Source of the DNA: Lytechinus pictus
Lineage: Eukaryota
Assembly: GCF_037042905.1 (NCBI RefSeq)
Contig: NC_087245.1
Coordinates: 19,594,001 to 19,658,000, forward strand
Direction: 5' to 3'
Length of the DNA stretch: 64,000 bases
Shown: piece by piece, positions 31,279 to 58,200 of the stretch
How the letters are laid out: the number at the start of each line of letters is the position of its first letter
How positions within the stretch are numbered: the stretch's first letter is position 1
Notes under the pieces: generated by a model
The model's input: the letters and a program-made list of their open reading frames with translations, nothing else
What the model was told of the DNA's origin: nothing
Databases searched by the model: none
Program-made: the position numbers and the translations under genes

Positions 31279-34200
31279 CTGGAAGTAAGTAATATAAGAT
31301 AAAAATCAATGACGATGATCTACTCCAGAGGGATTGTCAAACACAAAATTTTACCAATATATTGATACTTTCATTTTTGAAGAACGAATATTCTCTACTT
31401 TTTTTCTTGCAGTAGTATCAGAGTCTTCTTTCAAGATGATAATTTCATCAGATATTTCATATTGTCAATATTACTGGTATTACTATTATTATGATCATTA
31501 TTATTAACTAACCACTCTATTGCATATCATTGTGTTCTATTCACCAAGTAACATTAATGAATTAATGACATTTATTTGTTTCAAACTATAATGCCTATGT
31601 CATTGAAGCTGCAAATAGACAGGGTTATTAGGGGAAGATAATTACCATCGACAACAAGAGTTGCAGCAGATACATCTCTTCCATTGTCGTTTGTTGCTAC
31701 TACACTGTAGGTACCCGCATCCTGCGGCCCAACCTTCGGGATGGTTAGCATGTTGTGTTCCCCAGTTTGGCTGATCTGCAATTTGAAATGACAGAACAAT
31801 TGTGTTATATAAGAATTGGACTATCCACGATAATTGAAAGCCAAATGACAGATCTAATTTTTTTCAGATTTAACACTATTTCAAAAGAATGCATGGCTTT
31901 TGGACATTCCGTGCACTAAGCCCTTGACTACAGAATTACTAAATTCTAAAATAGGAATAGGATTTGTACAGATACCAACAATTTAGAATGTATGTGTAAC
32001 AGAGTAAATACAAAATTTAATTCATTGTTACCTAATTGTCTTCATTGACTACAGTAATTCAGTTAACTTTATTTGACCCTGGCAGTCCAGTGGGTGCTCA
32101 ATCTATACTCTGTTATGTTTATTATGTGTTGTACTTCACTGTATCAATTTCTATACTTTTCACTGCCGAAATAAATAATAATAATAATAATAATAATTGA
32201 TGACATGTATAATGTTTTGTAGAATTGAAATGAAATAAACTTGAACTTGAAATTGAATTTGAACCTAGCTAAAACACTTTTAAAGGGTCAAATAATGAAC
32301 AAAAATCATTACCGAATTATTATTATTATTATTTATAAAAAATACTTTCAATATTAAACAATACTTAATGATGAATTCTGGTAATAGAATGGAACTGGCA
32401 TACTTTTGTATTAAGACAAATGCAATTGTAATTCATCAACTAATTTCACTCTTAATTTTCAATCAAATGTCACCAATTTGCAGTGATATGTACCTCAATG
32501 TATGGATGAGTCTGAATCTCAATGCTGTTCTTGAACCATTGTACAGCCGGCTGTGGGGTGCCTTGGATTTTAACCCTGAACTGTACTCTGTCACCAGGCT
32601 GCACCTCTTGGTCATTCAGTCGAATGACAATAGTTGGTCGGTCATCAACGTCTTTCTCTCCTGTAATCATGACAAAAGAGATATGTTCAACTGATCAAAA
32701 GAAATTTCTATAATGAAATCTTATCAAAATCAAATAATTCACAAGAAAAATTCAGAATTGCAGAAGATTTTACAAATCTAAAACATTGAAACAAATTAAT
32801 AGAAAGTAATGTAATAAAATAATGTACATACACACATCTTAGTTTAATATATAATACCAAAATCTCATATACATGAATGAAAAACAACATTCTTTTTAAT
32901 ATAATATGAACTACCATGATTTGTTGAAATATCTTTATGAATTCACATTAAAAACAGAAAAGGCATCATGAATCTAGCACAAGAGAAATCATAATCTTAG
33001 TTTACAGGTTTTCTTGTGGAAATGTCACAATTCTAATTGTTGTTTTTTTTCAAGCTACATTCATTTTAGTTTCATCTGCAAACTATTAAAATAAATTACA
33101 GTATCATCACACATATAATTAAAAGCAACAAATTACATAATAAAAACATAAAAACCTTTCAATTTGAAATACAATTACATATACATTACGAAGAAAAAAT
33201 AATATAACTCAGAATAAGTTTTAAAAGAAAGACTTCAATATAGCCGAGGGGAAAACTACAGAGTGCCCAAATTTTCATTGAAAATCAAATAAATAAATAG
33301 AGCTATGATTACATATCAAGCAAAAAAATACAACCCATTCCCATAACACCAAATCAAAAACATAAAACAATGAAAAAATAAACAAACACATGAGGTCTTT
33401 AACTTCAGAACATTCCATTGCAAGATTGCTTTGTGTTTGATATATCTCATTTCCAAAATGAAATGTTTTTGATTTCTCAACTAAAGAGTATGTCAATCTT
33501 ATTGGAATAAATGATATTGTCTGGTCAAAATTAATTTATCTGTATTTACAGGTATGGGGCAAATCAAAAAATGAAGGGAATTGAGTGTTTTGGTTATGAT
33601 TTCAATTCAAGTGCTACTTATTTCTAAAAATTTTGTTTTCATAATTAAGTAAATTATTTTCACCTATCTTTTTAATAGGAAACTTATCAAAACCATTCAA
33701 CAAACAAAATAAATTTCATGCAAACTGATTTCAAAATCATTATATCGTGCATGTAAAGGGACGCATTCAGAAACATAAGCATGCATTAAATTAATTCAAA
33801 CTTCTTTTCCTACCTTTCCCCTTGCCTGGGAAAAACAAATGACGTCTGTTGCGTGCAGAACACATAAACCAGTACACAGCACAGAAAACATTAGCCATTC
33901 AGTATTAATTTCACACTTCTAGGAAATACCACATGTTACTGTTATGAGTTACTTCATGATTTGAATAGATATTTGCAATCTTTTGTGGTCTCTACTTTTT
34001 CATCAAATTTTATTGCTGATTATTTCAGACATCACACATAATATATAACAGCAAATAGGAATTTTTTCACTGTTTAATTCAACACTATCTTGGGCCAGTT
34101 CTTAATTAATTCATTATATTGAAGAATATTCCTTGGAGGAGCCTAAACCTCAGGAAGAATTCTTTCCATTCCACTTAAATCTAATTTGTAGTAAGTGGGG

Positions 34201-37200
34201 AGTACACATGTCTGGTTAGACACCGGCATTGACAAATGGTGAGGTGTGGGAGAAATGCACATAGCAAGCACGGGAGGGGGTGGTTCACTTATCATGCCCT
34301 CATGTCAATTTCTATTTATAGACTATGACATCATGATTTCTGGCAACAACATCACAGAAGATATATATCACTACGTTCAGCATTTCCAGTTTGTTTGATA
34401 GTTATATATGGTAGATCGGGAAGGGGAACAATAGGGGCACATGCCCCTTCTTTATGGAGGACATTTAATAACTGTTTGGCTGCCCTTTGGTTAATTCTGG
34501 ATATGCCCCTTTTTTCCAGCTTATATTCAGGATGTGGAGCATTGTGGCCCAGAGGATTAGTCTCCAGACTTTGAAACAGAGGGTCATGGGTTCGAATTCC
34601 AGCCATGGCATGAATTCCTTCGGCAAGAAATTTATCCACACTGTGCTGCACTCGACCCAGGTGAGGTGAATGGGTACCTGGTAGGCTTTAGCGCCTACAT
34701 GTATTAATATGGCGGCTCAGCAGATAGCGTAACTATATGATACCAAGTATCAAAGCGCAGTTGAGTATATGCACATAGTAACTGCGCTATATAAATGGAC
34801 ATATTATTATTATTATTATGTATAACAATTATAACAGCAACAATATTATTTGTTTTGTTTGCAATTCAGTCCTTTCTGAGTTCATACAGAGATAGATTTT
34901 ATAGAATTACATAACATTCAATATATTTCATTCCTGAAGAATGGCCAAAGTGAAAACTGGTTATATTCTCTTTGATGTATACAATTTTGAGTATGTTACT
35001 GCAAAAACATTTCTGAATTTCATAATATATTTCAAATTCGAAATTTAGAAAAGCAATAGCATTGTATTCACATATAGTTTATTACTAAAGAAGCACGTGT
35101 TATATAATCTTCAGTCACATGAAATACTGACACAAAAATGAATTTACATATTTGAAAAGCAGAGAATATCAACTGTTTGCTTCAAATATACCAAACAGTT
35201 TGCAAAAAGCAGACAAGATGTTAATTGACAAGCAGAAAGACAGTTTCACTGCAAATTTATCATTAAGTTGTTCTATGTTTCATCAGTTACATTAACAAAC
35301 ATTTGACTCCAATATCAGACTTCAATATTAAGGAAAATGATCCATTGTAAGTGTACTTGTACAAACCATTACAACATTGCGCAAAAAGATAATTGCATCA
35401 CACTTTGTATTAGTAACCTTTCTAGGAGAGTATAGAAGAGATAAATTGAGCAAATCTTGGTACCAAATGAATTTTATACTAGATACCTTTCCGTATGAAC
35501 AGGACGGCATGGGAAGTTCTTGCGTCTATATAAAGGGGTGGGACCAGGAAAGTTTCGTAACAATGTGAAAACAGACATGCTATTGCATGGGTGGGGTCAG
35601 GCGGAAAATGAAGACAGCAAGGCTGCTTCGATCCTCAACCAAACACAAACCCTGATAATCAAATCCACACATCAAAAATGATCTCCAAGGCGATTTCAAG
35701 ATGAAACAAACCAAAGAAACTCATGAACTGAACGGACATGAAAGGGCATATTCAAAATGTACTTCCAGAAATATCTATCAGTCATCAATTGGCAAAAAGT
35801 TGCATGGCCTACTGAATTATGCAATTCCATTTTTAGATTTTGTATTTTAAACCCATGGCTCCACTAGAAAATTGGTTAAGAATACTGTTAATAATTGACC
35901 AAACTCCCTATTGCTTTTAATTAGTCTCCAAAGTAAAACAAACTAATTTGTTTATAGTGGTATATATTTTGGCCAAACATAATGGACATTAATCGCTAGA
36001 GGGTATTCATTTGTCTCGCAATCTACTATGGTCAACAAGGAAATTCGTGATCACTCTCGCAAAAAGTGTTCACTGGCTTTCTAGGAAATTCGTGATCACT
36101 CTCGCAAAAAGTGTTCACTAGCTTACAAGTTCACGAGCTTTCGAGTGCCGCTGCAACTCTTTATCAAGTGACGAAAATTATCTGATGACGTACTCTATTT
36201 ATACTAATCTCCAGGACCGTACGCACGAACGCGAGAACAATAGGTGGGTATTGATCCGTTGCGTCGGTATGCGGCGCGGCCGGTAATCCGTATATGCAAA
36301 TACGCCGTGGGTCGGCGATATGCAAATTAGACAAAATTGGCGGGCTCGCTAGTTTCCCGTGGGCGGGGGCTGACTAGCTGAGCGGTCCCTCGTTCGGGGC
36401 CGGGAACGATCGGGTCGGCGTGCACTGCCAGGCAAGGGGGTATTGTGCTGTCTGATGGTTCGCATCCAGAAGTCGGGGATGTCGATCCCGCTGTCTCTGT
36501 TGAAGTTGTTAGGACAAAGACGTATACTAATAGCCTCCTTAATCCTGCGTGTATACCAATGTCTCTCTTTGGCAATGCAATGTACACCCTCCCAATCTGG
36601 GTGGTGTTGTTTCTCCCAAGCATGTTCTGCCACCGCGGATGTGTCGGTTCGCTGTAACCGAACATCGCGCTTGTGTTCAGAAATGCGTTCAACTATCGGT
36701 CGGGCTGTTTCTCCGATGTAAGACCCGTCACATCCCTGGCAAGGAATGTTGTATACTACGCCATCACGTCTGTGATCAGGGATAGGGTCTTTGGGGTGTA
36801 CAAGCTGTTTGTGTAAGGTGGTGTCCGAGCGGAAAACCGTTCGGATACCGTGACCTTCTAATCGGCGTTTAAGTTGTTGTGAGAGGCCATCTATGTATGG
36901 CAAGACTGTGCAAGTCTTGAAAACCTTCTGATCCCTTGGTGGTAGTTTTTTCTTGAAAGTGTTCTTGATAAAACGGCGTGGGTAGCCGTTGCTGTGCAAG
37001 GCGCCACGTATGTGTGCTCTTTCTTTCGGGAGTTCAGGTGGGTGAGTTATGATACGTGCTGCTCTGTCGAACAGGCATTTAACAAGACCTTTCTTGACCG
37101 ATTTGTCGTGATGAGAATCAAATGGTATGTATTGGTCTGTATGAGTGGGCTTGCGGTAGACAGAGGTGGAGAGTTTCCCGCCCTCGTGTCTTTGGACTAG

Positions 37201-40200
37201 CGTGTCAAGGTAGATTGCGAGACAAATGAATACCCTCTAGCGATTATTTCAATCCGCAATAATGAACCTATTTAGTATAATGGACATTGTTATGCGAATG
37301 TAACCTTTCAAACAATTTAATTGTTCGATACATTAGACTAAAAGTTCCTAATTAGATTTTAGAGAACTTTCATCCAAAGCCTTATTAATGAAAAATTATT
37401 ATGAGGCACTCTGAACACACTGCACACAGAATGATTTTATCATCCCCTTCAATTCAATCCAAAAATTTCAAACAATCTCACACTTGATGCTCAAGAAAGT
37501 GCTGATTTTTGTTCTTCTTTGTGTATGCTCATAGTAAACTTGTGATTGTTGTTGAGCTGGGGTGCAATATTGTGATACGAGACAAGCCTTTCCCCTTCCT
37601 ATTTTTTTATTCCGTCATGGTCTCATTTCTACTTTGCCTCTTCTAACTTCTTAGGTTTCTCTTTTCCTTTGCCATTGATCTTTTTTTCCCTCATTTTCAC
37701 TGTACAGCAGTAACTTCTTGACTTTATTTGACGGAACTGGAGTATAACATTTCATTCATATTTTATATTTCTTATTTTTCGAAGATTTAAGCTAGAAGTT
37801 TCATTTGTATAAAATTGATGATATTGTATGTGATGTGATTTAGCACAACCAAGTTTTTAAATGAAATTTCTTGTGCTTTTTTTTCAAAACAAGAGGCAAT
37901 AAATGCCAATTTAGCGTAATTTATTCTAGGACCTATGATACAGCAGAACTTACCGTCGACAAGAAGAGTAGAAGATGAAACAGATACTCCAAACTCGTTG
38001 GTCAGAGTGATACGGTAGTTTCCAGAATCACTGGGCCGAACCTGGAGGATCATTAGGATCTGTCTGTCGCCCTCTGTGAGGAAACGGACCCGAGACGTCT
38101 CTGTGATAGAGCGCTCGTCCTTTGTCCACTTCACCTGCAAGAAGGACAAGAGAAGAGATTTTTGGCCTTATGAAATTCAACTTAGAGGTTCAATGCACTC
38201 TGAAATTTCTGATTCATTGCATGTTTTATTGCTCAGTAGAAAAATTGTTGGTCCTATTTCAATATGAAGCGAAGCAGGTGGCAAAATGCAAGGACATTTG
38301 AGATGTCAAGTAGAAACATTCTAAATCAAAAACAGTTATTCTTCTTAACACTTTTAATAACAACTTTTAACGATGATTGGTGTAATGAGGAATCATCATG
38401 ACAATATGCCTTGTAAATGTCTTGAGTTGATACTGTCAAACTTACAGTGGGGGCAGGTGATCCGGACACTCTACATTCCAACCTGATGGTACTGCCCTCG
38501 GAAGCAACCAAACTCTCTAGAGGAGCAATGAAATCAGGGGATTGTTTCTCTGAAAAACAGAAAAAGAAATGAAAAAATAGAATTAATCGTAACATAACAT
38601 TTGATATAAATTACATACTGTTCTTTTATTGGGTTTTAGAGATTGAATATATTTTGTTTTCTCCATAAAAGCATGTATGAAATAGGATGTCTTATATTGA
38701 GACCACAGGTCAATTACTTTCAATCTTCTATAAAATTACACTTACTACAAGAGATAAAGGGCTGCTTTCCATCACAAAATTATTTTTGAATTCAAAATCA
38801 CCATCAATTTTCAAAGAAATGGCACTTATAAGATGAGATAAGGAGGCTGTTTCCCATCACAAAATTATTCTTTTCATTCATAACTCTGCTGTTCTCTAGA
38901 AAACCTTTGCCCAACCTCCAGTGGTAAATTTCTCTCATTTACAGGCAATAAAGTTAATAAAATCCATTTGATAAAATGGTTGGACATTCCTTTTAATAAG
39001 TACAATTCTGAGCAAACTATCAAGAGCAAGCAGGTGACTTACCATTGACCATGATGGTGCATTCTGTAGTGACCACGCTGACCTCGGTCTCTGCCCTACA
39101 CTGGTACAGTCCTGCATCGCCTGATGTTGGCTTCTTGATGACAAGGTAGTACACATCACCATCCCTCAAGAACTCTACCCGATCTGAAGACTGGATTGGT
39201 GTGTTGTTGAAGAACCACTGTACCTACAAATGAACAATTTGAAATAGATATTCCATGAAGATCAGTAGAGTCTTTACAAAGTACTCATCAAGATACAGAA
39301 ATATAGGGGAAACACGTAGAGGAAAGACATGGACAAATATGGGAAAGTTCCATGTCCTATCAGTAGTATGAATGTGACAAAGATTCAAAGAAGAGATTTC
39401 TTGGGAAAGAATGTCTAATGCTTTACTGGACAGCTTTTAAAAGTTTGCCAAAGACAGATGATTAAACAACTGAGCATACACAGATCTTCAATATTCCATC
39501 CTTTTGCTATCTGTTCTGTTTTTAAAAATCTATATTTTACATCATTCCTATGCACCTGAGGGGGAGTGCCTTGCTTGAATATAGGAAATTTACCTGAGCT
39601 GTGGGTTTCTCCTCAATCCTCACTCTGAGTTTGATCTCGGTGCTCTCAACAACCTGCTTGTCTGTTAGATGCTCAGTAAAGACGATCGGCTGGGATGGTC
39701 TAACAACAACTGGTCCTGGACCTGTAGGCATAGGAACCCTGGAGAAAGGACCAAGTACAATAAAAATAAGAGTACATCAATGATAGAATGATAGATTGCC
39801 TAATAGTCTACAAAGCCTTTATCGAGCAAAGTGAATATAGCAATACTCGTATCTACATTTCATGTATACAGATGAAATAACGAATAGAGTTTAAAAAAAA
39901 TTAATACTTGAATATCTACAACCAACTAATTCACTAACAAAATTAAGTAATGAACAGTATAACAGCAATTGAAAAGAGAAGAAATCTAGCTGGGAAACAA
40001 GTCTCAACATATTCTGGCCAAAGGGTTACAGTGATTTTAAAGCATACATGAATACAAATAATAACAACTTACGTTACTCCGGAGACATTGATGACAATGT
40101 TGACAGTCTCTGTGCCTCTGTCATTCTCTGCTACCACTGTGTATTTACCTCCTGCATCTGGTCTTGGGTTCTTGATTACCAAGGTGTGAACTGTCTCTTC

Positions 40201-43200
40201 CTTGATGATCTGTTACAAGAATTACAAAAGGCAATAATATATCAGACATCCCAAGTTTTACAATATCAGGCATATGACTCCCACCATAAGGGCTATTGCT
40301 CATCATTCCAGTCCCATCTTGAGCCTATAATACACCCTATCTCAAATACATTATACCCACTGTCTGGCAATCTCATGCCAATTCACAGATTCCTGTATGA
40401 AAGTCTCACTAATTGCTGGCATTTAAAGTACGTATCTCTGCAATATGTTACCACAATAGTAATATATCTAGTTTACAGACAAATGGGCCCACAATGTAAG
40501 TCCATCCTACCCCCTTCCTTTTTGCAAATCAAGAATGTCATGTCAAATTCATTTTCCAATATTTATGTTTATGTCTATGTTGCTTTCACAATTTCTGCTA
40601 CAGTCACCTTGCAGAAGGATCACTTTCTCACTCTCCAAAAGTTTGAAAATAACTAGTCAAACCAATTTTAAAGACAATGGGAGCATGAAGATTCAGACCT
40701 CTTCGACAGAGCTATTGCTAAATTGGAAACAAATCTGAAAGCAAACCAAGAGCTGATACCTTAATACACTAAGGAAACAATTTATTACCTCCACTTCTTC
40801 TGTCTCTACAATCTCTACATCATTCTGGAGCCATGTGACCTTGGGAGGTGGCTGTCCCCTGATCCTGAAGTGAAGTCTGATTGGTTGACCCACTGGGATA
40901 TCAAGATGGCTGTACTGAGTCTGGAGAGGGGTGATGTGTGGTGCTGGCACGAGGGCAGCATTCACTGTAACAAAAACAAAATTACACAACATATTTAGAG
41001 ATATTTGTACAGTTTAATAAAAAATTTTACCAATCTTGGTGTCAGAAACAATGTTTAAGCAGCAAGAAAATAGAAGGAAGCTAATGGCAATTCACACTAA
41101 AAATGTATTAAATAAAACCTTATTAAGTTGCAAAAGTGCCCTTGATAAATGCTATTTCAATACACAGTCAATTAGAATGAATGGAAGTAGGAAAAACTGA
41201 CACACCATAGCAAGTTTCTTTTTGCCAGGACTAAATGTATGCTATGTTGGACATCAAAGTAAATGCAATATTCACATATGTGAACAGTATGTAATTAAAA
41301 ACCACTCTGTTATTCTCTGGTATGGCTAATTATTTACTTGTGAAATTGTTCAGAAGAATGAAACTTGAGTCATGCATAGAGTATAATCTGGATGATCCAT
41401 GGCCTGAACATTTCTTTGAAACATTGTTACATTCATGACCAAATTTAACCCCTAAAATTCGGGACTTCAACTTTCATAAGGAAAGAAGCCTACCTTTAAC
41501 AGTGATCTGGCAAGTAGTGGTATCCTGTCCTGCAGGGTTGGTTGCCTTGCAGACATACCGACCTTCATCCTCCAGAAAGGCTTCCCTCACATCCAACCTA
41601 GCAACACTCTCTACAAAGCTCATCTCATACTGAGGCTTCCCAGCGATGGGCTTATCATCCTTGTACCACGTAATGCGAGGAGTAGGCTGGCCAGTGACGC
41701 GGATGGCGATCTCGATGGGCTCGCCTTCGGTCACCTCGATGTCTTTGAGGCGGCTCTGGAAGCGAGGAGGGGTGGCTGCACCCATGAGGGGCATGGCGTC
41801 GGGTTGGGTGAAGAAGCGAGACTGGAGGGGTGCAAACATGGGCTCTGCCTGTGATGGGACTACTTCCATCTGTGTTCTGCAGGTACAAAAAGATCACTGA
41901 AACATTAAATTGACTTTCATTGCATTGTTAACATGTTAATAAAATGTTACCTTTTAGATCAAATTTACATTTAGATATTGCTAACCTAACATACAGGGTT
42001 TGGGGGTGGTGAGACAGATTGTAATGCACTCTAGAACGTTCATTTATTAGTTCTTAATGGGATCAATTAGCTTGTTTCTCTTTCTGTACAAAGGAGAGTA
42101 CATACACCTTGATGATGATATACGGGACCCCTCACTTTCTACAGTTCAGATAAATTAAATTCAACTGCGACTCTATTTTAGATGAGAACCACACAGGTTC
42201 CCCCAACTCTACACTTACAAATTAATCAATCAATATGTGCAATGATTCCCACTAATGATCAATGCAATCAGTAAAAAAAATTAGCCCTACGATCAATCAA
42301 TAAGCTACGTGATACAGGGCACAGACATTATTCTTACACTTCTACTGCTACAAAAGATATATTTCTGAAGGAACTTACACTGGTGGGACAACATCTATCT
42401 CAATGGATGTCGACTCCTGACCCTTATCATTCTCTGCTACCACTGTATAGGTACCAGCATACTCTGGTTTGGCTTCCTTAATGACCAGTTTGTAATCTGT
42501 CTCTTCATTGATGATCTGAAATGCAAGAAGGAGTTGATAAAAACCTTACCCAACATATATGTTTACTCTACAAATTTGTAATTGCTAACCTGTTACCTAC
42601 ATGAAACATGAGCCTTCTCTAGGATGGTAGTCTACAAATTCATATGTTCACAGAATTAATGAAACTGGTAATCCTATTAATGGCTATAAAAGCTGTCTTG
42701 GTTCTTATATTTAACTTGATATTAGTATCATTTTGAATGTTTAATTCTATATACATTAGACTTATGACATTGGACTAGACACTGTTGTATCAATGTTGAA
42801 ACGAAAATGGTAGAAAGCTGCATGGAAATATGTGCTTTGACTGACGGTCACTGACCATCACAATGAATATCTTCATGATCATTATTGATATCATCATCAT
42901 CATCATCATCATCAACATCGTCACCATCATCATCATCACTATCATCATAACCATCATCATCATCATCCTTATCATCATTAACACCACCATCATCTTGATC
43001 ATCACCAAAATCGATACCTACCTCCATTTCTGGAGTTTCCTTTACAGGCACACCATCATGATACCAGCGAACGACCGGTGATGGGAAGGCCTCGATGTTA
43101 AACTTGAGCACAATGGGTTGGCCTACTGGTATATCAAGATGGCTTGACTCATGTGAGATGGGTTTGATGACTGGTGGAGCTTGAGGCAAAGCTGGAGAAA

Positions 43201-46200
43201 TGGTAGAAAATATGGTGTATAAAAATAAATCAAAGAAATATTAATGTATTAGTGCTGCTAGCCATGCAGGAATAGTTCTATCCATCATTCACATTCCTAT
43301 AGGGGTGCCATAGCCAATTCATGAAAATCTCCTGTCTATGCAGAGTAAGGAATTGTTTGAAACCCTGCCATAGTTCTTGGGCCTTTGAGCAAGGAATTTT
43401 ATCTTCATTGATCTTTCATGTCTTTTGGATGGTACATGTAGGTCTAAGACGGCAGTCGAAGATGTAAAAATGCATATCCGATTGACAAAGGTCTATAAAA
43501 TCACAGACACACCCTCACACTATTGCAACCACACAGGAAGGTGGATTCATTCATATCCCTTACACTCTCTGAAAGAAGTACAAAATTACACCTAAATTGC
43601 CTTCAAGAATAAAACATATCCCACAATAATTCAAAATGGATTCCTATTCTTATCTCTATGGTAACTAACTCACATTTGACTTCAACTCTCCCTGAGGTAA
43701 CGTCTCGGCCATGATTGTTGGTAGCTTGACAGGTGTAGAGACCTGCATCCTCCAGGAAGGCTTCCCTGACGTCAAGACAAGCAACGCTCTCCATGAAGCT
43801 AAGCTCATACTGGGGCTCATTCTCTGTCAGCTCCTTGTTATCTGTTTGGAAGAATAAAATATGAATCTTTAGACTGGTATCACTAAATACAGTGTACAGA
43901 AGTCAAATCTCTGCTTGAAAAGTAGATCATGCAAACATTTGTATTGTGAATTGCCCTTGTTACCACAATCACCATCACTGTGACCATCACTGTAAATGTT
44001 ACATCATGAAACCATCATCACTGTCATGATAATCATCATCTTCACCTTACATATAAATATCACCATAATCACCAGCATCATTATCACCATCAAAATCACC
44101 AGAACAATTATCATCATTGTGATGTAATTAAAACATCACAAATCTCAGTACCCCTGTTTTTATTAACATTATAATCATTGTCACTATCATCATCACCATC
44201 ATCAGAATAATCAACCAAAAATGTTCACCTTTGTTGTCACCGCCCTTTTCACCACAACAATAACCATCATCATCATCATCAACGCCATCATCCTCAACAT
44301 AAACATCATCATCATCCATTCTTTTCTTACCTTTATACCAGACGATATTAGGTACAGGCACGCCAGCAACCTTGCAGGTTAGCTCAAATGGTTGACCATC
44401 AGGGATCACTAAATCCTTGAGCCTGGTCTTGAACCTTGGAGCAGTACCAGGTGGGGTCTTGGCTGCAGGAGCAGGGGCACTCTGGACCTCCTCTTGGTGG
44501 ATGGGTATGCTACAATCAAAGGACATATTGATTCGATATTTAAAGGTAATGTTGATAAAGATACTTTAAGGAAATTTTTCAATAATCATGTCACCAACAT
44601 CAGTAATTTCATCTTCATCATCATTCCCTCCATTAATGTCACCATCATTATCATCATCATTGCCATCAACATCAATATTATAATCAATTTCATCACCATC
44701 ACCATCATCATCACCACCACTATCATCATCATAACATATCATCATGATCAAAATCATAATTTAAGATCATATCATCTTCATTATTATCACTATTATCATC
44801 ACAGTTACCATCACTGTCAGTATCATCATTAACAGAAAATATAAGACTTACACGACAGGTGGGCGTGGGACATTAATCTCAACACTGGAAGACTCCTGTC
44901 CTTTCTCATTTTCAGCTCTGATGGTGTATTTGCCGGTATCTTCAGGTTCTGCTTGACCGATCTGCATCGTGTACGTTGTATCCTCCTTCACGACCTTCAA
45001 AACAAAGCAAGGAAAGTTTGGTGTCACAATCCATCAGTGAACGTGATGGCAAATATCTTACAAGCAGGCTATATCTTCAGAGAGATTGACTTATCCAAAC
45101 AAACTTAATTCATATACATAAGTGACGCATTGAACGTTAATACAGGTGATGGTCAACAATGCAAATAATATCATGACACTAAATAGTCAGGATTATGTTT
45201 ATCATTAGCAGGGTTGAAGTTGGTCAAGACAACCACAAAAGAAAGTTATCAGTTACATAAAACAAAGCAAATAGTCCCCTAAATCAATATTACATCATTG
45301 TTAGACTTTAATTAGCATATCATGACATGGTAAATATATACTTTAATACTTTTTTTTAAATACACTACACATCAATAACAAACAGGTCCAGAATCTTGCA
45401 ACAGATAATTCTAAGCTTACTCTTACACCTCTGACTAAAAATCGATCAATCTTTGAGTGAGAATAATCATTAGATATACCTTGATTCTTCCATCTGGTCT
45501 GAGTGGACGGTCATTATGATGCCAGGTGACAGTAGGCTCTGGGTTACCGGACACCTTGAAGGCCAGTTTGATAGGTTGACCAACCGGTATCTCCAGGTAG
45601 CTGGACTCCAGCTTCAAGGGTTGGATCCAGGGTGGAGTAGGAGATGCATCCTCTGGAAAATAGCATATTTTGAAGGAGGGCAATAATAACAACATTTGAA
45701 AACATGGCAACAAAATATATTTAAAAGAGGGAAATTACATTTTGAAACACAGCAATAGTAAAATGTTTCAAACGAAGTAGACAGCACAAATATGTATTTC
45801 AAAGGGAGGAATAATATAGTTTGAAATAGAGCAATAGTAAAAATAAATGTTTTGAAAGAAGGGAATAGCACAAAATAAAAATATCAAACAAGGATATAGC
45901 CCATTTCAAAAGTGGGATATAGGACATTGAGAAAGTGGGGAACAGCAGACCTTGAAATAGAACAATAGTAGAATATTTGGAAAGAAGGAAAAAAAAATGT
46001 TTCAAAGAGGGATATTTCACAACAATTTGGAAGAATAAATACAGTTGTGAAAGAGAGATGTATAGGAATTTTTATTTTTATTTTGAATAAATTTGTTTTC
46101 AAGAGGCATATACATGTAGTAGGTTAATACCATGGGGTTTTACCCTCGATGTCACTGGCAAGTGGGAATTGGATACCTTTTTTTTAATTAATATCATCAA

Positions 46201-55200: not shown

Positions 55201-58200
55201 ATCTTAACAATAAGATTATAATTGTAATTACACCTCCAATAATTAACCAAAATCATATGAGGATGGTATCAATATGTGAATAAAGTACAATAAATCTAAA
55301 CTGAATGAAAGGATGTCACATAGCCCAGTTACATATATGAAAACAGTTACCGCTACTAATCAACTACAGGTTAAATTGATTCACAAGAATGAAAAATTAT
55401 TGAGAAATTTACCTGAACAGTTTTGGTACTTGTCTCCGGGAGTCTATCCAGAGGTATTTCTGCATCGCTTGTCTGTTCGTCTGGAAGGATTATTTCTGCT
55501 ACCTGACGCACAGGACGTGGTGCCTTCCACTGCTTCATCTGAGCTGGCTTCTGGTATTGCGGGACCACACTCTCCTGCACCGCTTTAGGAGGTGGAGGGG
55601 GCTGCCAGGGCTTTGTCTCCACTGGCTTTTGGGACACCGGTAGCACGGACTCGTCGACCAATCCTGGTGGAGCTGGTACAGGTTTCTGGGATTTGACCAG
55701 CGGTACTGTTTGGACCGTACGTTGGACTTGAGGTACAACTGTCTCATCTGCTTTGGCTTGAACTGGAGTTTGTTTGGGCAGGTTGTTGGCAAGGGCAAAG
55801 AGTTCATCGTTGGTGACCTGGATGGCATCAAGGAGCTCACGATTGGTATTGATGGTTGAGGTGACGCGAGGTGGTACCTTGTGACCTAAGAAAGTGGTTT
55901 ACAAAACACTCATCAATTTCATATTACAACATAAGCATAGATGTGTCTAATCTACCTGGAAAATAATATGGACATTCCGGTTATACAGTATTGTTGAAAA
56001 GAAACAATATACTTTAACATAGAATATGAACAATACTAATTGTGTGTAATAAAAATATGTTTCTTTACAAGGAATAACAGAGATGCAAAGTTCAAAAACT
56101 TAAGCCATGGTTCAGATTCTAGGTGGGGAATGTCAACTCGACATGAGATTACCAGGAATTTTATGTAAATCAAGACACTGTGATGCTGTCAGGAGTCAGC
56201 ATTTTCAGGAAATGAGCAAGAGCCCCTAATATGAGAGCTTCATGCAAAATGCATGAGACTTGTCAAGTCTGCATTTGTCTGCATCACAAACAAGAATACT
56301 GCACCTGCCCTCCTCCTCTAAAATCTGAATATGCCCTTACATTAACCTGCATGCACTTACTGTATAGATCGATGGCCATTTCATTCAGTTTGAAGAGCCT
56401 GGCTTTCTGTCTTGCATCTCCTTTCTCAATGAAATCCTCAACCTCTCCTAGTACTTCTGCAGCCTGTTCCTGTGCAGTGAAGAGAGGTTTCTTCTGACCA
56501 ACAGCTACCAGGAGATCCTCAGCCTTCACTTGCCACTCAACAACCTTCAAAACAAGATTACAGAACATATATATATTTGGGGGTTTGATTCACTTAATGG
56601 CTTATAAGGCCATGTATGCTAGTGAGAAACAACTGTGAAACGTACTGTTTTTTTTTTTAATTTTTTTTTTTATATAAGTTAAAAATTCATCTTCAAAGCT
56701 TTGTATATCACCCAAAACATACATCGTATGTTATTTGACCACCTGTATTGAATTGTACAAGCTATCACATAAAAGCCATATGTTTCCATTAATATAAAGA
56801 CTGTATATTGAATATTTAATGGATGTGTAAAAATCACTTTCGTTCTTATAATAACCATGATGATACAAAGATCATTTACTCATCTTCTGCTATAAAGAAA
56901 ACAATAAAAATCATATATATGATTTTCATTATAATATATTCATTCAAGCAATTAATTCAAAGTCAATTGTTAGTGCAAATGACTTTCTTGTTTGGTGTTT
57001 TATGATTGATGTTGGATAAATGAATCACTACAACTTACAGTTTTGTAGAGATCATGGAACTTTGGAGCAGTCTTGAGCTTTTTACGCTGGTCTTGGAGAG
57101 ACACGTTGAGCTTACTCCAGAAGCGATTGATGTCATCAACATCTCTCTTGATGGCTGAAGCATTAGGAGGGTTCTTGGCAAGAGCAGTGGTTGCTACGGT
57201 TACAAAGTCCTTGTGTTCTACCTCAAGGGGCTGCCAAAGGGTAAATAACAGTTAATGTATGATTGAATAATACCTATTACTATTGCAATTCCAAGGTAAA
57301 AAATTATCTTGAATCATGCTTACCTTCAAAAAGCCTGTAAATCGTCAATGACACAATGTATATTCATATCAACAGAAATACCTTGTAGGTTGGTTGTCAG
57401 AAAAAAATTATTTCAAATGATACTAACATACCTACATGCATCAATTTTATGATATGCATGAAAATATTGTACAATTGGACTAGGCTTCTCACTTTTTTTT
57501 TACATTGTTTGAGCGTTCCATTATCAATAAAAATATTTCATGTAATATTACAAATATTGATTACAGTGTCAGAATTCTTAAAACAAACCTTTACATCTTG
57601 CTCGAATGTGGCAAACCTCTTTTGGATTTCAGGTAGATCCTCTGCCTTCTGTCCAAAATCAGTCTTGAGCTCTTCAACATGCTTGGTAGCTTTCTGGATG
57701 CGAACAGCCAACTGTAAAGAACAATAAGTAACAACTTCTGTGTTGATGCAATTCTTTGATATGTTTTAACCACTATCCATCACATAGTATTATATATGTA
57801 ACATAATGCTACTACACTCTTATTTCTAAATAGAAATTAATCAAAATTAAGAATGCTTCTGCTCCTTCTTCAGAGGGCTCTGGAGCCTATCGCGAAGATG
57901 CTAACATTGATATGTATGAACTCGTATTTCAATTTACGTATTCTTAAACATTGAAATTGCAGGATACTCAGAACAGATTTTAACTGATTCATTAACTTTT
58001 TGTTTATTAAAAACCCAAAGGAACAGCCTTAGAATGTTTATACCCTTTTTATCTAAGTCACATATGCTTTTGGCCCTGCTGAGTATGAGGATTAAAACTG
58101 TGAATCATGACTTGCAAATGATGACATTACAGGTAGGCCTTTAGTTGTAAACCTTTTGCATTAAACACAGGTTCACAAAATGCAGAGTACAAAGCAAACA

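Follow-up and report, generated by a model that had tools for sequence, protein, structure and literature searches.

Minimal hammerhead ribozymes in the pLTRs of Penelope-like elements (PLEs) are the closest described counterparts of the motif analyzed here. Cervera and De la Pena (2014, PMC4209133) described a U3-A8 core in the PLE hammerheads of Schistosoma mansoni (~1,300 hits), together with an unpaired nucleotide that separates 9 from 10.1, a palindrome at 15.2-16.2, a bulge in the middle of helix II of D. virilis Penelope, and pairs of hammerheads on opposite strands in Schistosoma. In the in vitro assays of that report, the monomers did not cleave and the dimers cleaved at a low level, and its authors leave functions other than cleavage open (PMC4209133). 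Natural U3-A8 hammerheads were also reported by Perreault et al. (2011, PMC3088659), where previous in vitro activity is cited. The hammerhead of PAc, a PLE from Anolis carolinensis, was reported to cleave only with the element protein, cleavage was dispensable for insertion in vitro, and the RNA-seq data as described there had no ends at the cut site; a region that binds the protein was mapped to the ORF's first 172 nt (Frangieh 2024, PMC11167929).

Hammerheads are also found in introns. The amniote RECK-type hammerheads are of type I and are conserved at orthologous sites, and it has been proposed in a review that intronic hammerheads were domesticated from retroelements (PMC6155905). According to a 2026 preprint on Xenopus retrozymes, 42-44% of the copies are located in introns, yet they are depleted there relative to size (10.64898/2026.07.22.740005). 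Our literature search, which covered titles and abstract openings, found no report of cleavage of a host pre-mRNA by an intronic PLE hammerhead.

The motif reported here is on the minus strand of a 64-kb window (the whole stretch of DNA that was analyzed). It has in common with the metazoan PLE hammerheads, including those of Cercyon from S. mansoni, the pLTR location, a helix I of 4-5 bp, an enlarged helix II, the extra nucleotide between 9 and 10.1, the G10.1-C11.1 pair, the palindrome at 15.2-16.2 and U3-A8; in both cases most copies are single ones from truncated elements and opposite-strand pairs occur (PMC4209133). However, its helix II is composed of 6 bp and a bulge compared with 7-8 bp in S. 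mansoni, the host and the family differ, and the copies of this young family are near-identical, whereas those of S. mansoni are heterogeneous (PMC4209133). The core covariation is the same as that of the natural U3-A8 hammerheads of Perreault et al. (PMC3088659). The element resembles the Poseidon element PAc in its single ORF for RT and a putative GIY-YIG endonuclease, its tandem pLTR-ORF-pLTR arrangement, a hammerhead close to where the ORF begins, copies that end preferentially at two sites 30-40 nt from each other, and an AT-rich target; PAc differs in having C3-G8 and an ORF that starts inside the hammerhead, whereas here stem I begins 197 nt before the ATG (PMC11167929).

We suggest, with a probability of about 0.8, that the motif is a genuine minimal hammerhead of a young Penelope-like family, that it is kept by selection on the element and not on the host, and that the window copy is a passenger in a host intron. 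For Penelope hammerheads, U3-A8, an additional nucleotide ahead of stem II and a stem III made of a palindrome have each been published before (PMC4209133). The original prediction had presented the variant core as unusual, a view that does not hold: it is the consensus of a family of more than 400 near-identical copies, is present in at least one further family of the genome, and was published in 2014 (PMC4209133) and 2011 (PMC3088659). With every flagged feature in print, the single locus matters little as it stands.

Anatomy of the motif and its element

The minus strand from 36171 to 36131 carries the same letters as had been predicted (features are collected in Table 1). Stem I has 4 bp, formed by 36171-36168 and 36134-36131. 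The core reads UUGAUAA, with U3, A8 and A9, and is followed by one extra A before G10.1; after stem II come the GAAA box and the AGCU palindrome at 15.1-16.1, and C17 is at 36135. The predicted cut, after the triplet CUC and between 36135 and 36134, had been correctly placed. Stem II had been drawn too short, as 4 bp with a 9-nt loop: in the MFE structure of 36159-36143, a bulged U separates 4 bp from two further G-C pairs, which are closed by a loop of 4 nt. Pair probabilities in the hammerhead fold are 0.99-1.0, except for the U-A pair beside the bulge, which is split 0.50/0.49. A15.1-U16.1 cannot close over two bases in a monomer; stem III can form between two copies only, in agreement with the palindromic stem III that had been proposed. 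With ViennaRNA, in which tertiary energy is outside the model, the active dimer has -17.1 kcal/mol, whereas two monomers reach -18.4 and an inactive dimer -25.1, and the AGCU duplex alone has -2.5 kcal/mol.

Table 1. Positions of the element, its hammerhead and the host intron in the window
Feature	Position	Strand	Remarks
Minimal type I hammerhead	36131..36171	-	Sequence, fold, family alignment
Penelope-like element, 5'-truncated	35990-37281	- (sense piece)	12-bp target duplication at flanks
Sense piece: 3' third of ORF and pLTR with hammerhead	35990..37210	-	Match to full-length unit
Truncated ORF: RT thumb, linker, putative GIY-YIG endonuclease	36349..37210	-	RT catalytic core absent from window copy
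Inverted 72-bp "tail": pLTR end and first ORF codons	37210..37281	+	At truncated 5' end
Target-site duplication, copy 1, 12 bp	35979..35990	.	Overlaps element end by microhomology
Target-site duplication, copy 2	37277..37288	.	
TATA-like box	36197..36203	-	32 nt upstream of stem I (counted by hand); putative promoter element
Two octamer-like ATTTGCAT motifs	36294..36327	-	Full-length unit has three; third lost with 21-bp deletion
45-bp tandem duplication in pLTR	36038..36127	.	Also in full-length unit; single unit in some RNA reads
Candidate 101-nt element intron, GT..AG	36026..36126	-	Starts 5 nt after stem I
Host intron, GT..AG, 5,293 nt	32661..37953	-	Between two Ig-coding exons

A generic minimal-hammerhead descriptor matched once in the 64-kb window, which agrees with the single copy that had been noted, and once in total across 200 simulated 64-kb sequences with the same dinucleotide make-up. 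Folding energy does not single out the motif (z = -0.45, with 63 of 200 shuffles folding equally well), and the fold z-scores of the three stretches that were compared (-0.45, 1.16 and 1.10) were uninformative. Rfam, run on the window, reported no hammerhead at the gathering score and none at E <= 10, where there was only a chance snoRNA match.

The window copy and a full-length unit are identical in 1216 of 1243 columns, the differences being 6 substitutions and a single gap of 21 bp, so the insertion is recent. Its sense piece ends about 15 nt before the element's ATG. The full-length ORF encodes 822 aa without stops and has a Pfam match to RVT_1 (E = 7.5e-8, 32.8 bits against a cut-off of 29.6). 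GIY-YIG was matched in the truncated ORF with E = 0.01 and 16.6 bits, under the curated cut-off of 22.6, and Pfam reported none for the full ORF; the GIY-YIG motif is visible by eye. A PDB search with the element ORF gave 0 matches. The element resembles the Penelope/Poseidon clade, of which it may be a member. Tandem units have a distance from hammerhead to hammerhead of 2,867 bp in loci L015 and L018 and of 2,866 bp in L032. We considered a non-LTR retrozyme and rejected it, since the single motif is joined to a coding PLE fragment and is not part of a noncoding tandem repeat with a hammerhead per unit.

The inverted tail yields a 37-bp inverted repeat with 35990-36026. In the loci examined, 37 of the 43 distinct copy ends fall into two clusters about 33 nt apart, with 20 at -20 to -14 and 17 at +16 to +20 from the ATG. 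These clusters fit the two reverse-transcription start sites that have been linked to the PLE tail (Frangieh 2024, PMC11167929). In the window copy, one end site was used for the sense end and the other for the inverted tail. Many copies (L001, L010, L016 and L017) are back-to-back inverted pairs with hammerheads on opposite strands.

The TATA-like box is 31-33 nt upstream of stem I in the window family and in both sister families described below, and this common spacing suggests that the element RNA may begin at the hammerhead. In sister families B and C (L051, L052), the ORF reaches or passes the TATA-like box. The candidate element intron (36126-36026) was absent among the 15 of 32 read joints listed, and the sister families have no such donor there; the candidate acceptor and the end of the inverted tail on its inner side are at the same place.

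Family copies and sister families

The pattern of the window family had 408 matches in the genome and its reversed control had 0, and a looser pattern had 463. The motif is a genuine hammerhead of the already described Penelope-like type and did not arise by chance, and the analysis supports its original assignment to the minimal type I hammerheads found in Penelope-like pLTRs. Among the 100 family matches listed, 85 are identical to the window motif, and C17 is changed to T at a CpG in 9 (counted by hand). Position 3 is changed in one family copy (C3 with A8) and position 8 in three, and C3-G8 is present in none. Since only these 4 changes stand against 408 matches, U3-A8 is the inherited state of the family and not a private change. 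A C3-G8 version of the pattern for the stem II of the window family (family A) gave 10 matches, none with that stem II and none with a tblastn match to the ORF, and no C3-G8 subfamily of family A was found. These ten C3-G8 cores (L019-L028), all on the forward strand, are in several cases preceded by their own inverted copy and have no tblastn match to the PLE ORF within 1.5 kb; they are probably stubs of another family.

Two sister families, B and C, have the same architecture and show 56-58% protein identity to the window family and to each other, and their hammerheads had 118 matches together (control 0). The 3:8 pair is U3-A8 in the window family and family B and C3-G8 in family C, and the U3-A8 change had thus been rightly called compensatory. 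The stem III palindrome is AGCU in the window family and ACGU in both sister families. The 2'-OH of nucleotide 8 acts in hammerhead catalysis and the 3:8 pair positions this nucleotide, so U-A can stand in for C-G.

We aligned four rows from three families, namely the window motif, families B and C, and one family-A variant. Changes on both sides were found for 6 of 13 pairs: the 3:8 pair, three pairs of stem II, one of stem I, and the inner pair of stem III (AGCU to ACGU). As a whole, 92% of the alignment cells pair, compared with 23-51% with slid partners, family C keeping two of the four stem I pairs and the family-A variant breaking two stem II pairs. UGA, A9, GAAA and UH are invariant across the three families, as are the extra nucleotide between 9 and 10.1 and the G10.1-C11.1 pair in all four rows. 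Judged from these aligned sequences, the covarying positions fall where a dimeric hammerhead would need them. The original prediction had advised a look for covariation among copies of the family itself; the 3:8 pair and pairs of stems I and II do covary between the three families, but the window family is too young for covariation or selection to be visible among its own copies.

The family, which has intact 822-aa ORFs and near-identical copies, is young and probably still active. One genome here contains three related families that have an unusual bulge in stem II in common, with variation in the 3:8 pair and the stem III palindrome; they offer natural material for contrasting U3-A8 and C3-G8, as well as homodimers and heterodimers. 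Genome-wide, a loose pattern for C3-G8 was matched about 1,510 times (45 in the control) and one for U3-A8 649 times (195 in the control), and intronic sense copies should therefore be common. Among the 100 U3-A8 loose matches listed, 4 (G000:C2:23090616, C2:45753312, C2:49985118 and C2:54901891) appear to be a third U3-A8 family with another stem II and the AGCU palindrome.

The host intron and the RNA reads

The Ig exons of the host are on the minus strand and encode about 14 I-set Ig domains (Pfam; counted by eye). Spectrin/SESTD1-like exons upstream are a weak lead from the protein atlas, in which the other clusters are generic Ig. The gene had been called a muscle gene; its many I-set Ig exons and the weak spectrin-like lead fit the architecture of titin/Sallimus-type muscle proteins, and it may be a muscle gene. 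The intron (37953-32661) is skipped by two reads of run X22 and by one contig of run X19, and the hammerhead starts 1,782 nt after its donor. As the Ig exons and the spliced intron are on the minus strand, the hammerhead lies in sense in the host pre-mRNA, and the claim that element and host share a strand is correct.

Raw RNA runs were chosen by species label and are fragmented cDNA libraries; the analysis covered about 6% of runs X21 and X22 and, for X24, 25%. Family RNA is present on both strands over the pLTR, 17-40-fold in X21 and X22. Over the element ORF (bins 36561-37042), reads in these stranded runs are mostly antisense (14-32-fold, compared with 1.3-3.0-fold in sense), for which inverted insertions or read-through from the host are possible sources. 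No pile-up of read starts or ends was found, a weak test as the libraries are fragmented, the PLE reads pool all copies, the read fraction is small and the majority of reads disagree with the reference at 36187. In the raw-read runs, coverage of the host exons did not exceed about 4-fold and unique intron sequence beside the insertion had none (0); the insertion may be absent from the animals that were sequenced. With copies pooled, host coverage thin and the insertion possibly absent, rare host cleavage would be compatible with the read data. Joints of "opposite strand" type between 35990-36083 and 37209-37247 are attributed not to processing but to the way in which the inverted tail and other copies affect mapping. 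Among the matches listed, the nearest of the same family on the minus strand are about 1.0 and 1.8 Mb away, and the nearest other match, at 85 kb, is on the opposite strand and has the ACGU palindrome.

Possible roles and origins of the motif

In an intact tandem, the pLTR promoter would start RNA near the 5' edge of stem I, as the TATA spacing suggests, and the next pLTR would supply a second hammerhead 2,867 nt downstream. On the model of published PLE work, pairing of the two AGCU palindromes would yield stem III, probably with the aid of the protein that the element encodes, and a cut after C17 would leave RNA of unit length. Nucleotide 8 would be held in the active site by U3-A8, a Watson-Crick pair that takes the place of C3-G8. 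Because cleavage was dispensable for insertion in Anolis and the RNA-seq reported there had no ends at the site (PMC11167929), the RNA-processing role is itself a proposal, and it counts against our explanation that ViennaRNA does not favor the active dimer and that the covariation comes from three families only. The window copy, with its truncated 5' end, inverted tail and 12-bp duplication, would be a by-product of retrotransposition, and its sense position in the intron is most likely due to chance. The host pre-mRNA would carry the motif and the intron would be spliced out normally; as a lone copy cannot form stem III, the host pre-mRNA is probably cut rarely or never.

It might also be considered that the fold is kept for a function other than cleavage, for instance to bind a protein or to serve as a leader at the 5' end of the element RNA, with catalysis being vestigial. 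Catalytic mutants of PAc were reported without loss of insertion in vitro and without RNA-seq ends at the site (PMC11167929), Cervera and De la Pena mention such functions as open (PMC4209133), and the RNA runs used here have no pile-up of read ends. However, the catalytic nucleotides are invariant, and the 3:8 pair, which forms in the catalytically active conformation of the hammerhead (PMC3884650), covaries across the three families. We therefore regard a role without catalysis as unlikely.

The original prediction had also proposed that the host pre-mRNA is cut with a partner in trans. The intronic copy would then be cleaved when a second RNA (a family transcript, or RNA from the window copy's own pLTR promoter) supplies AGCU, or when the element protein folds the motif, and host expression would be lowered or altered. 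This would be in line with a window motif that equals the family consensus and lies in sense, with family RNA on both strands over the pLTR, with the existence of intact family ORFs and the protein-assisted cleavage published for a related PLE (PMC11167929), and with the under-representation of retrozymes in Xenopus introns (10.64898/2026.07.22.740005). On the other side, the AGCU duplex is weak and the active dimer is not favored by ViennaRNA, the published activity is low even in cis (PMC4209133), the reads have no pile-up of ends (the weak test mentioned above), and the ORF-region reads are mostly antisense. The window copy also has only about 20 nt of the ORF start, in inverted orientation, compared with the protein-binding region in the first 172 nt in Anolis (PMC11167929). 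Nothing in the present data supports cleavage of the host pre-mRNA, and the monomer inactivity, low dimer activity and protein need in the published systems argue against an appreciable effect; we consider it improbable.

In a wider form, which we think very improbable, sense intronic PLE hammerheads would be latent cut sites that are completed on host pre-mRNAs by expressed element RNA or protein. If so, the stem III palindrome (AGCU or ACGU) would decide which families trigger which copies, and with about 2,000 such motifs the activation of a transposon could cut many host transcripts, including that of the window host. Whether PLE hammerheads ever harm host transcripts is a question for which a young family with intact ORFs permits a clean count of sense versus antisense intronic copies.

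The sense intronic position could also suggest a domesticated ribozyme with a regulatory role in its host gene, as for the RECK-type hammerheads of amniotes; domestication from retroelements has been proposed in the review cited above (PMC6155905). A ribozyme of that type would be expected to be old and single-copy and to have its own helix III, whereas the window motif lacks its own stem III and belongs to a recent multicopy insertion that has kept its target duplication and inverted tail and, over 1.2 kb, shows just 6 substitutions and one deletion relative to a full-length unit. We reject domestication as highly implausible. Although the fold z-score of -0.45 and the lack of an Rfam match would suit a motif that resembles a hammerhead by chance, or a canonical core that two private mutations have eroded, such an origin is refuted by the consensus of 408 copies, by a family with 56% amino acid identity that has an identical U3-A8 core, by the covariation with the sister families and by the single descriptor match in 200 simulated windows.

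Some further features of the host gene were noted. The same intron contains, at 34392-34873, a very abundant repeat, which is probably a fragment of a tRNA-derived SINE; in X21 and X22 its RNA depth on one strand is about 1,500-2,100, and the loose ends at this repeat carry a motif like the tRNA B box. Between the spectrin-like and Ig regions, a repetitive exon rich in P, V, Q and K (55371-55898) is reminiscent of a PEVK-like spacer. GAT-type microsatellites directly follow two Ig exons, at 42848-43020 and 44128-44330, and appear as poly-Asp in the ORF list; they are probably intronic.
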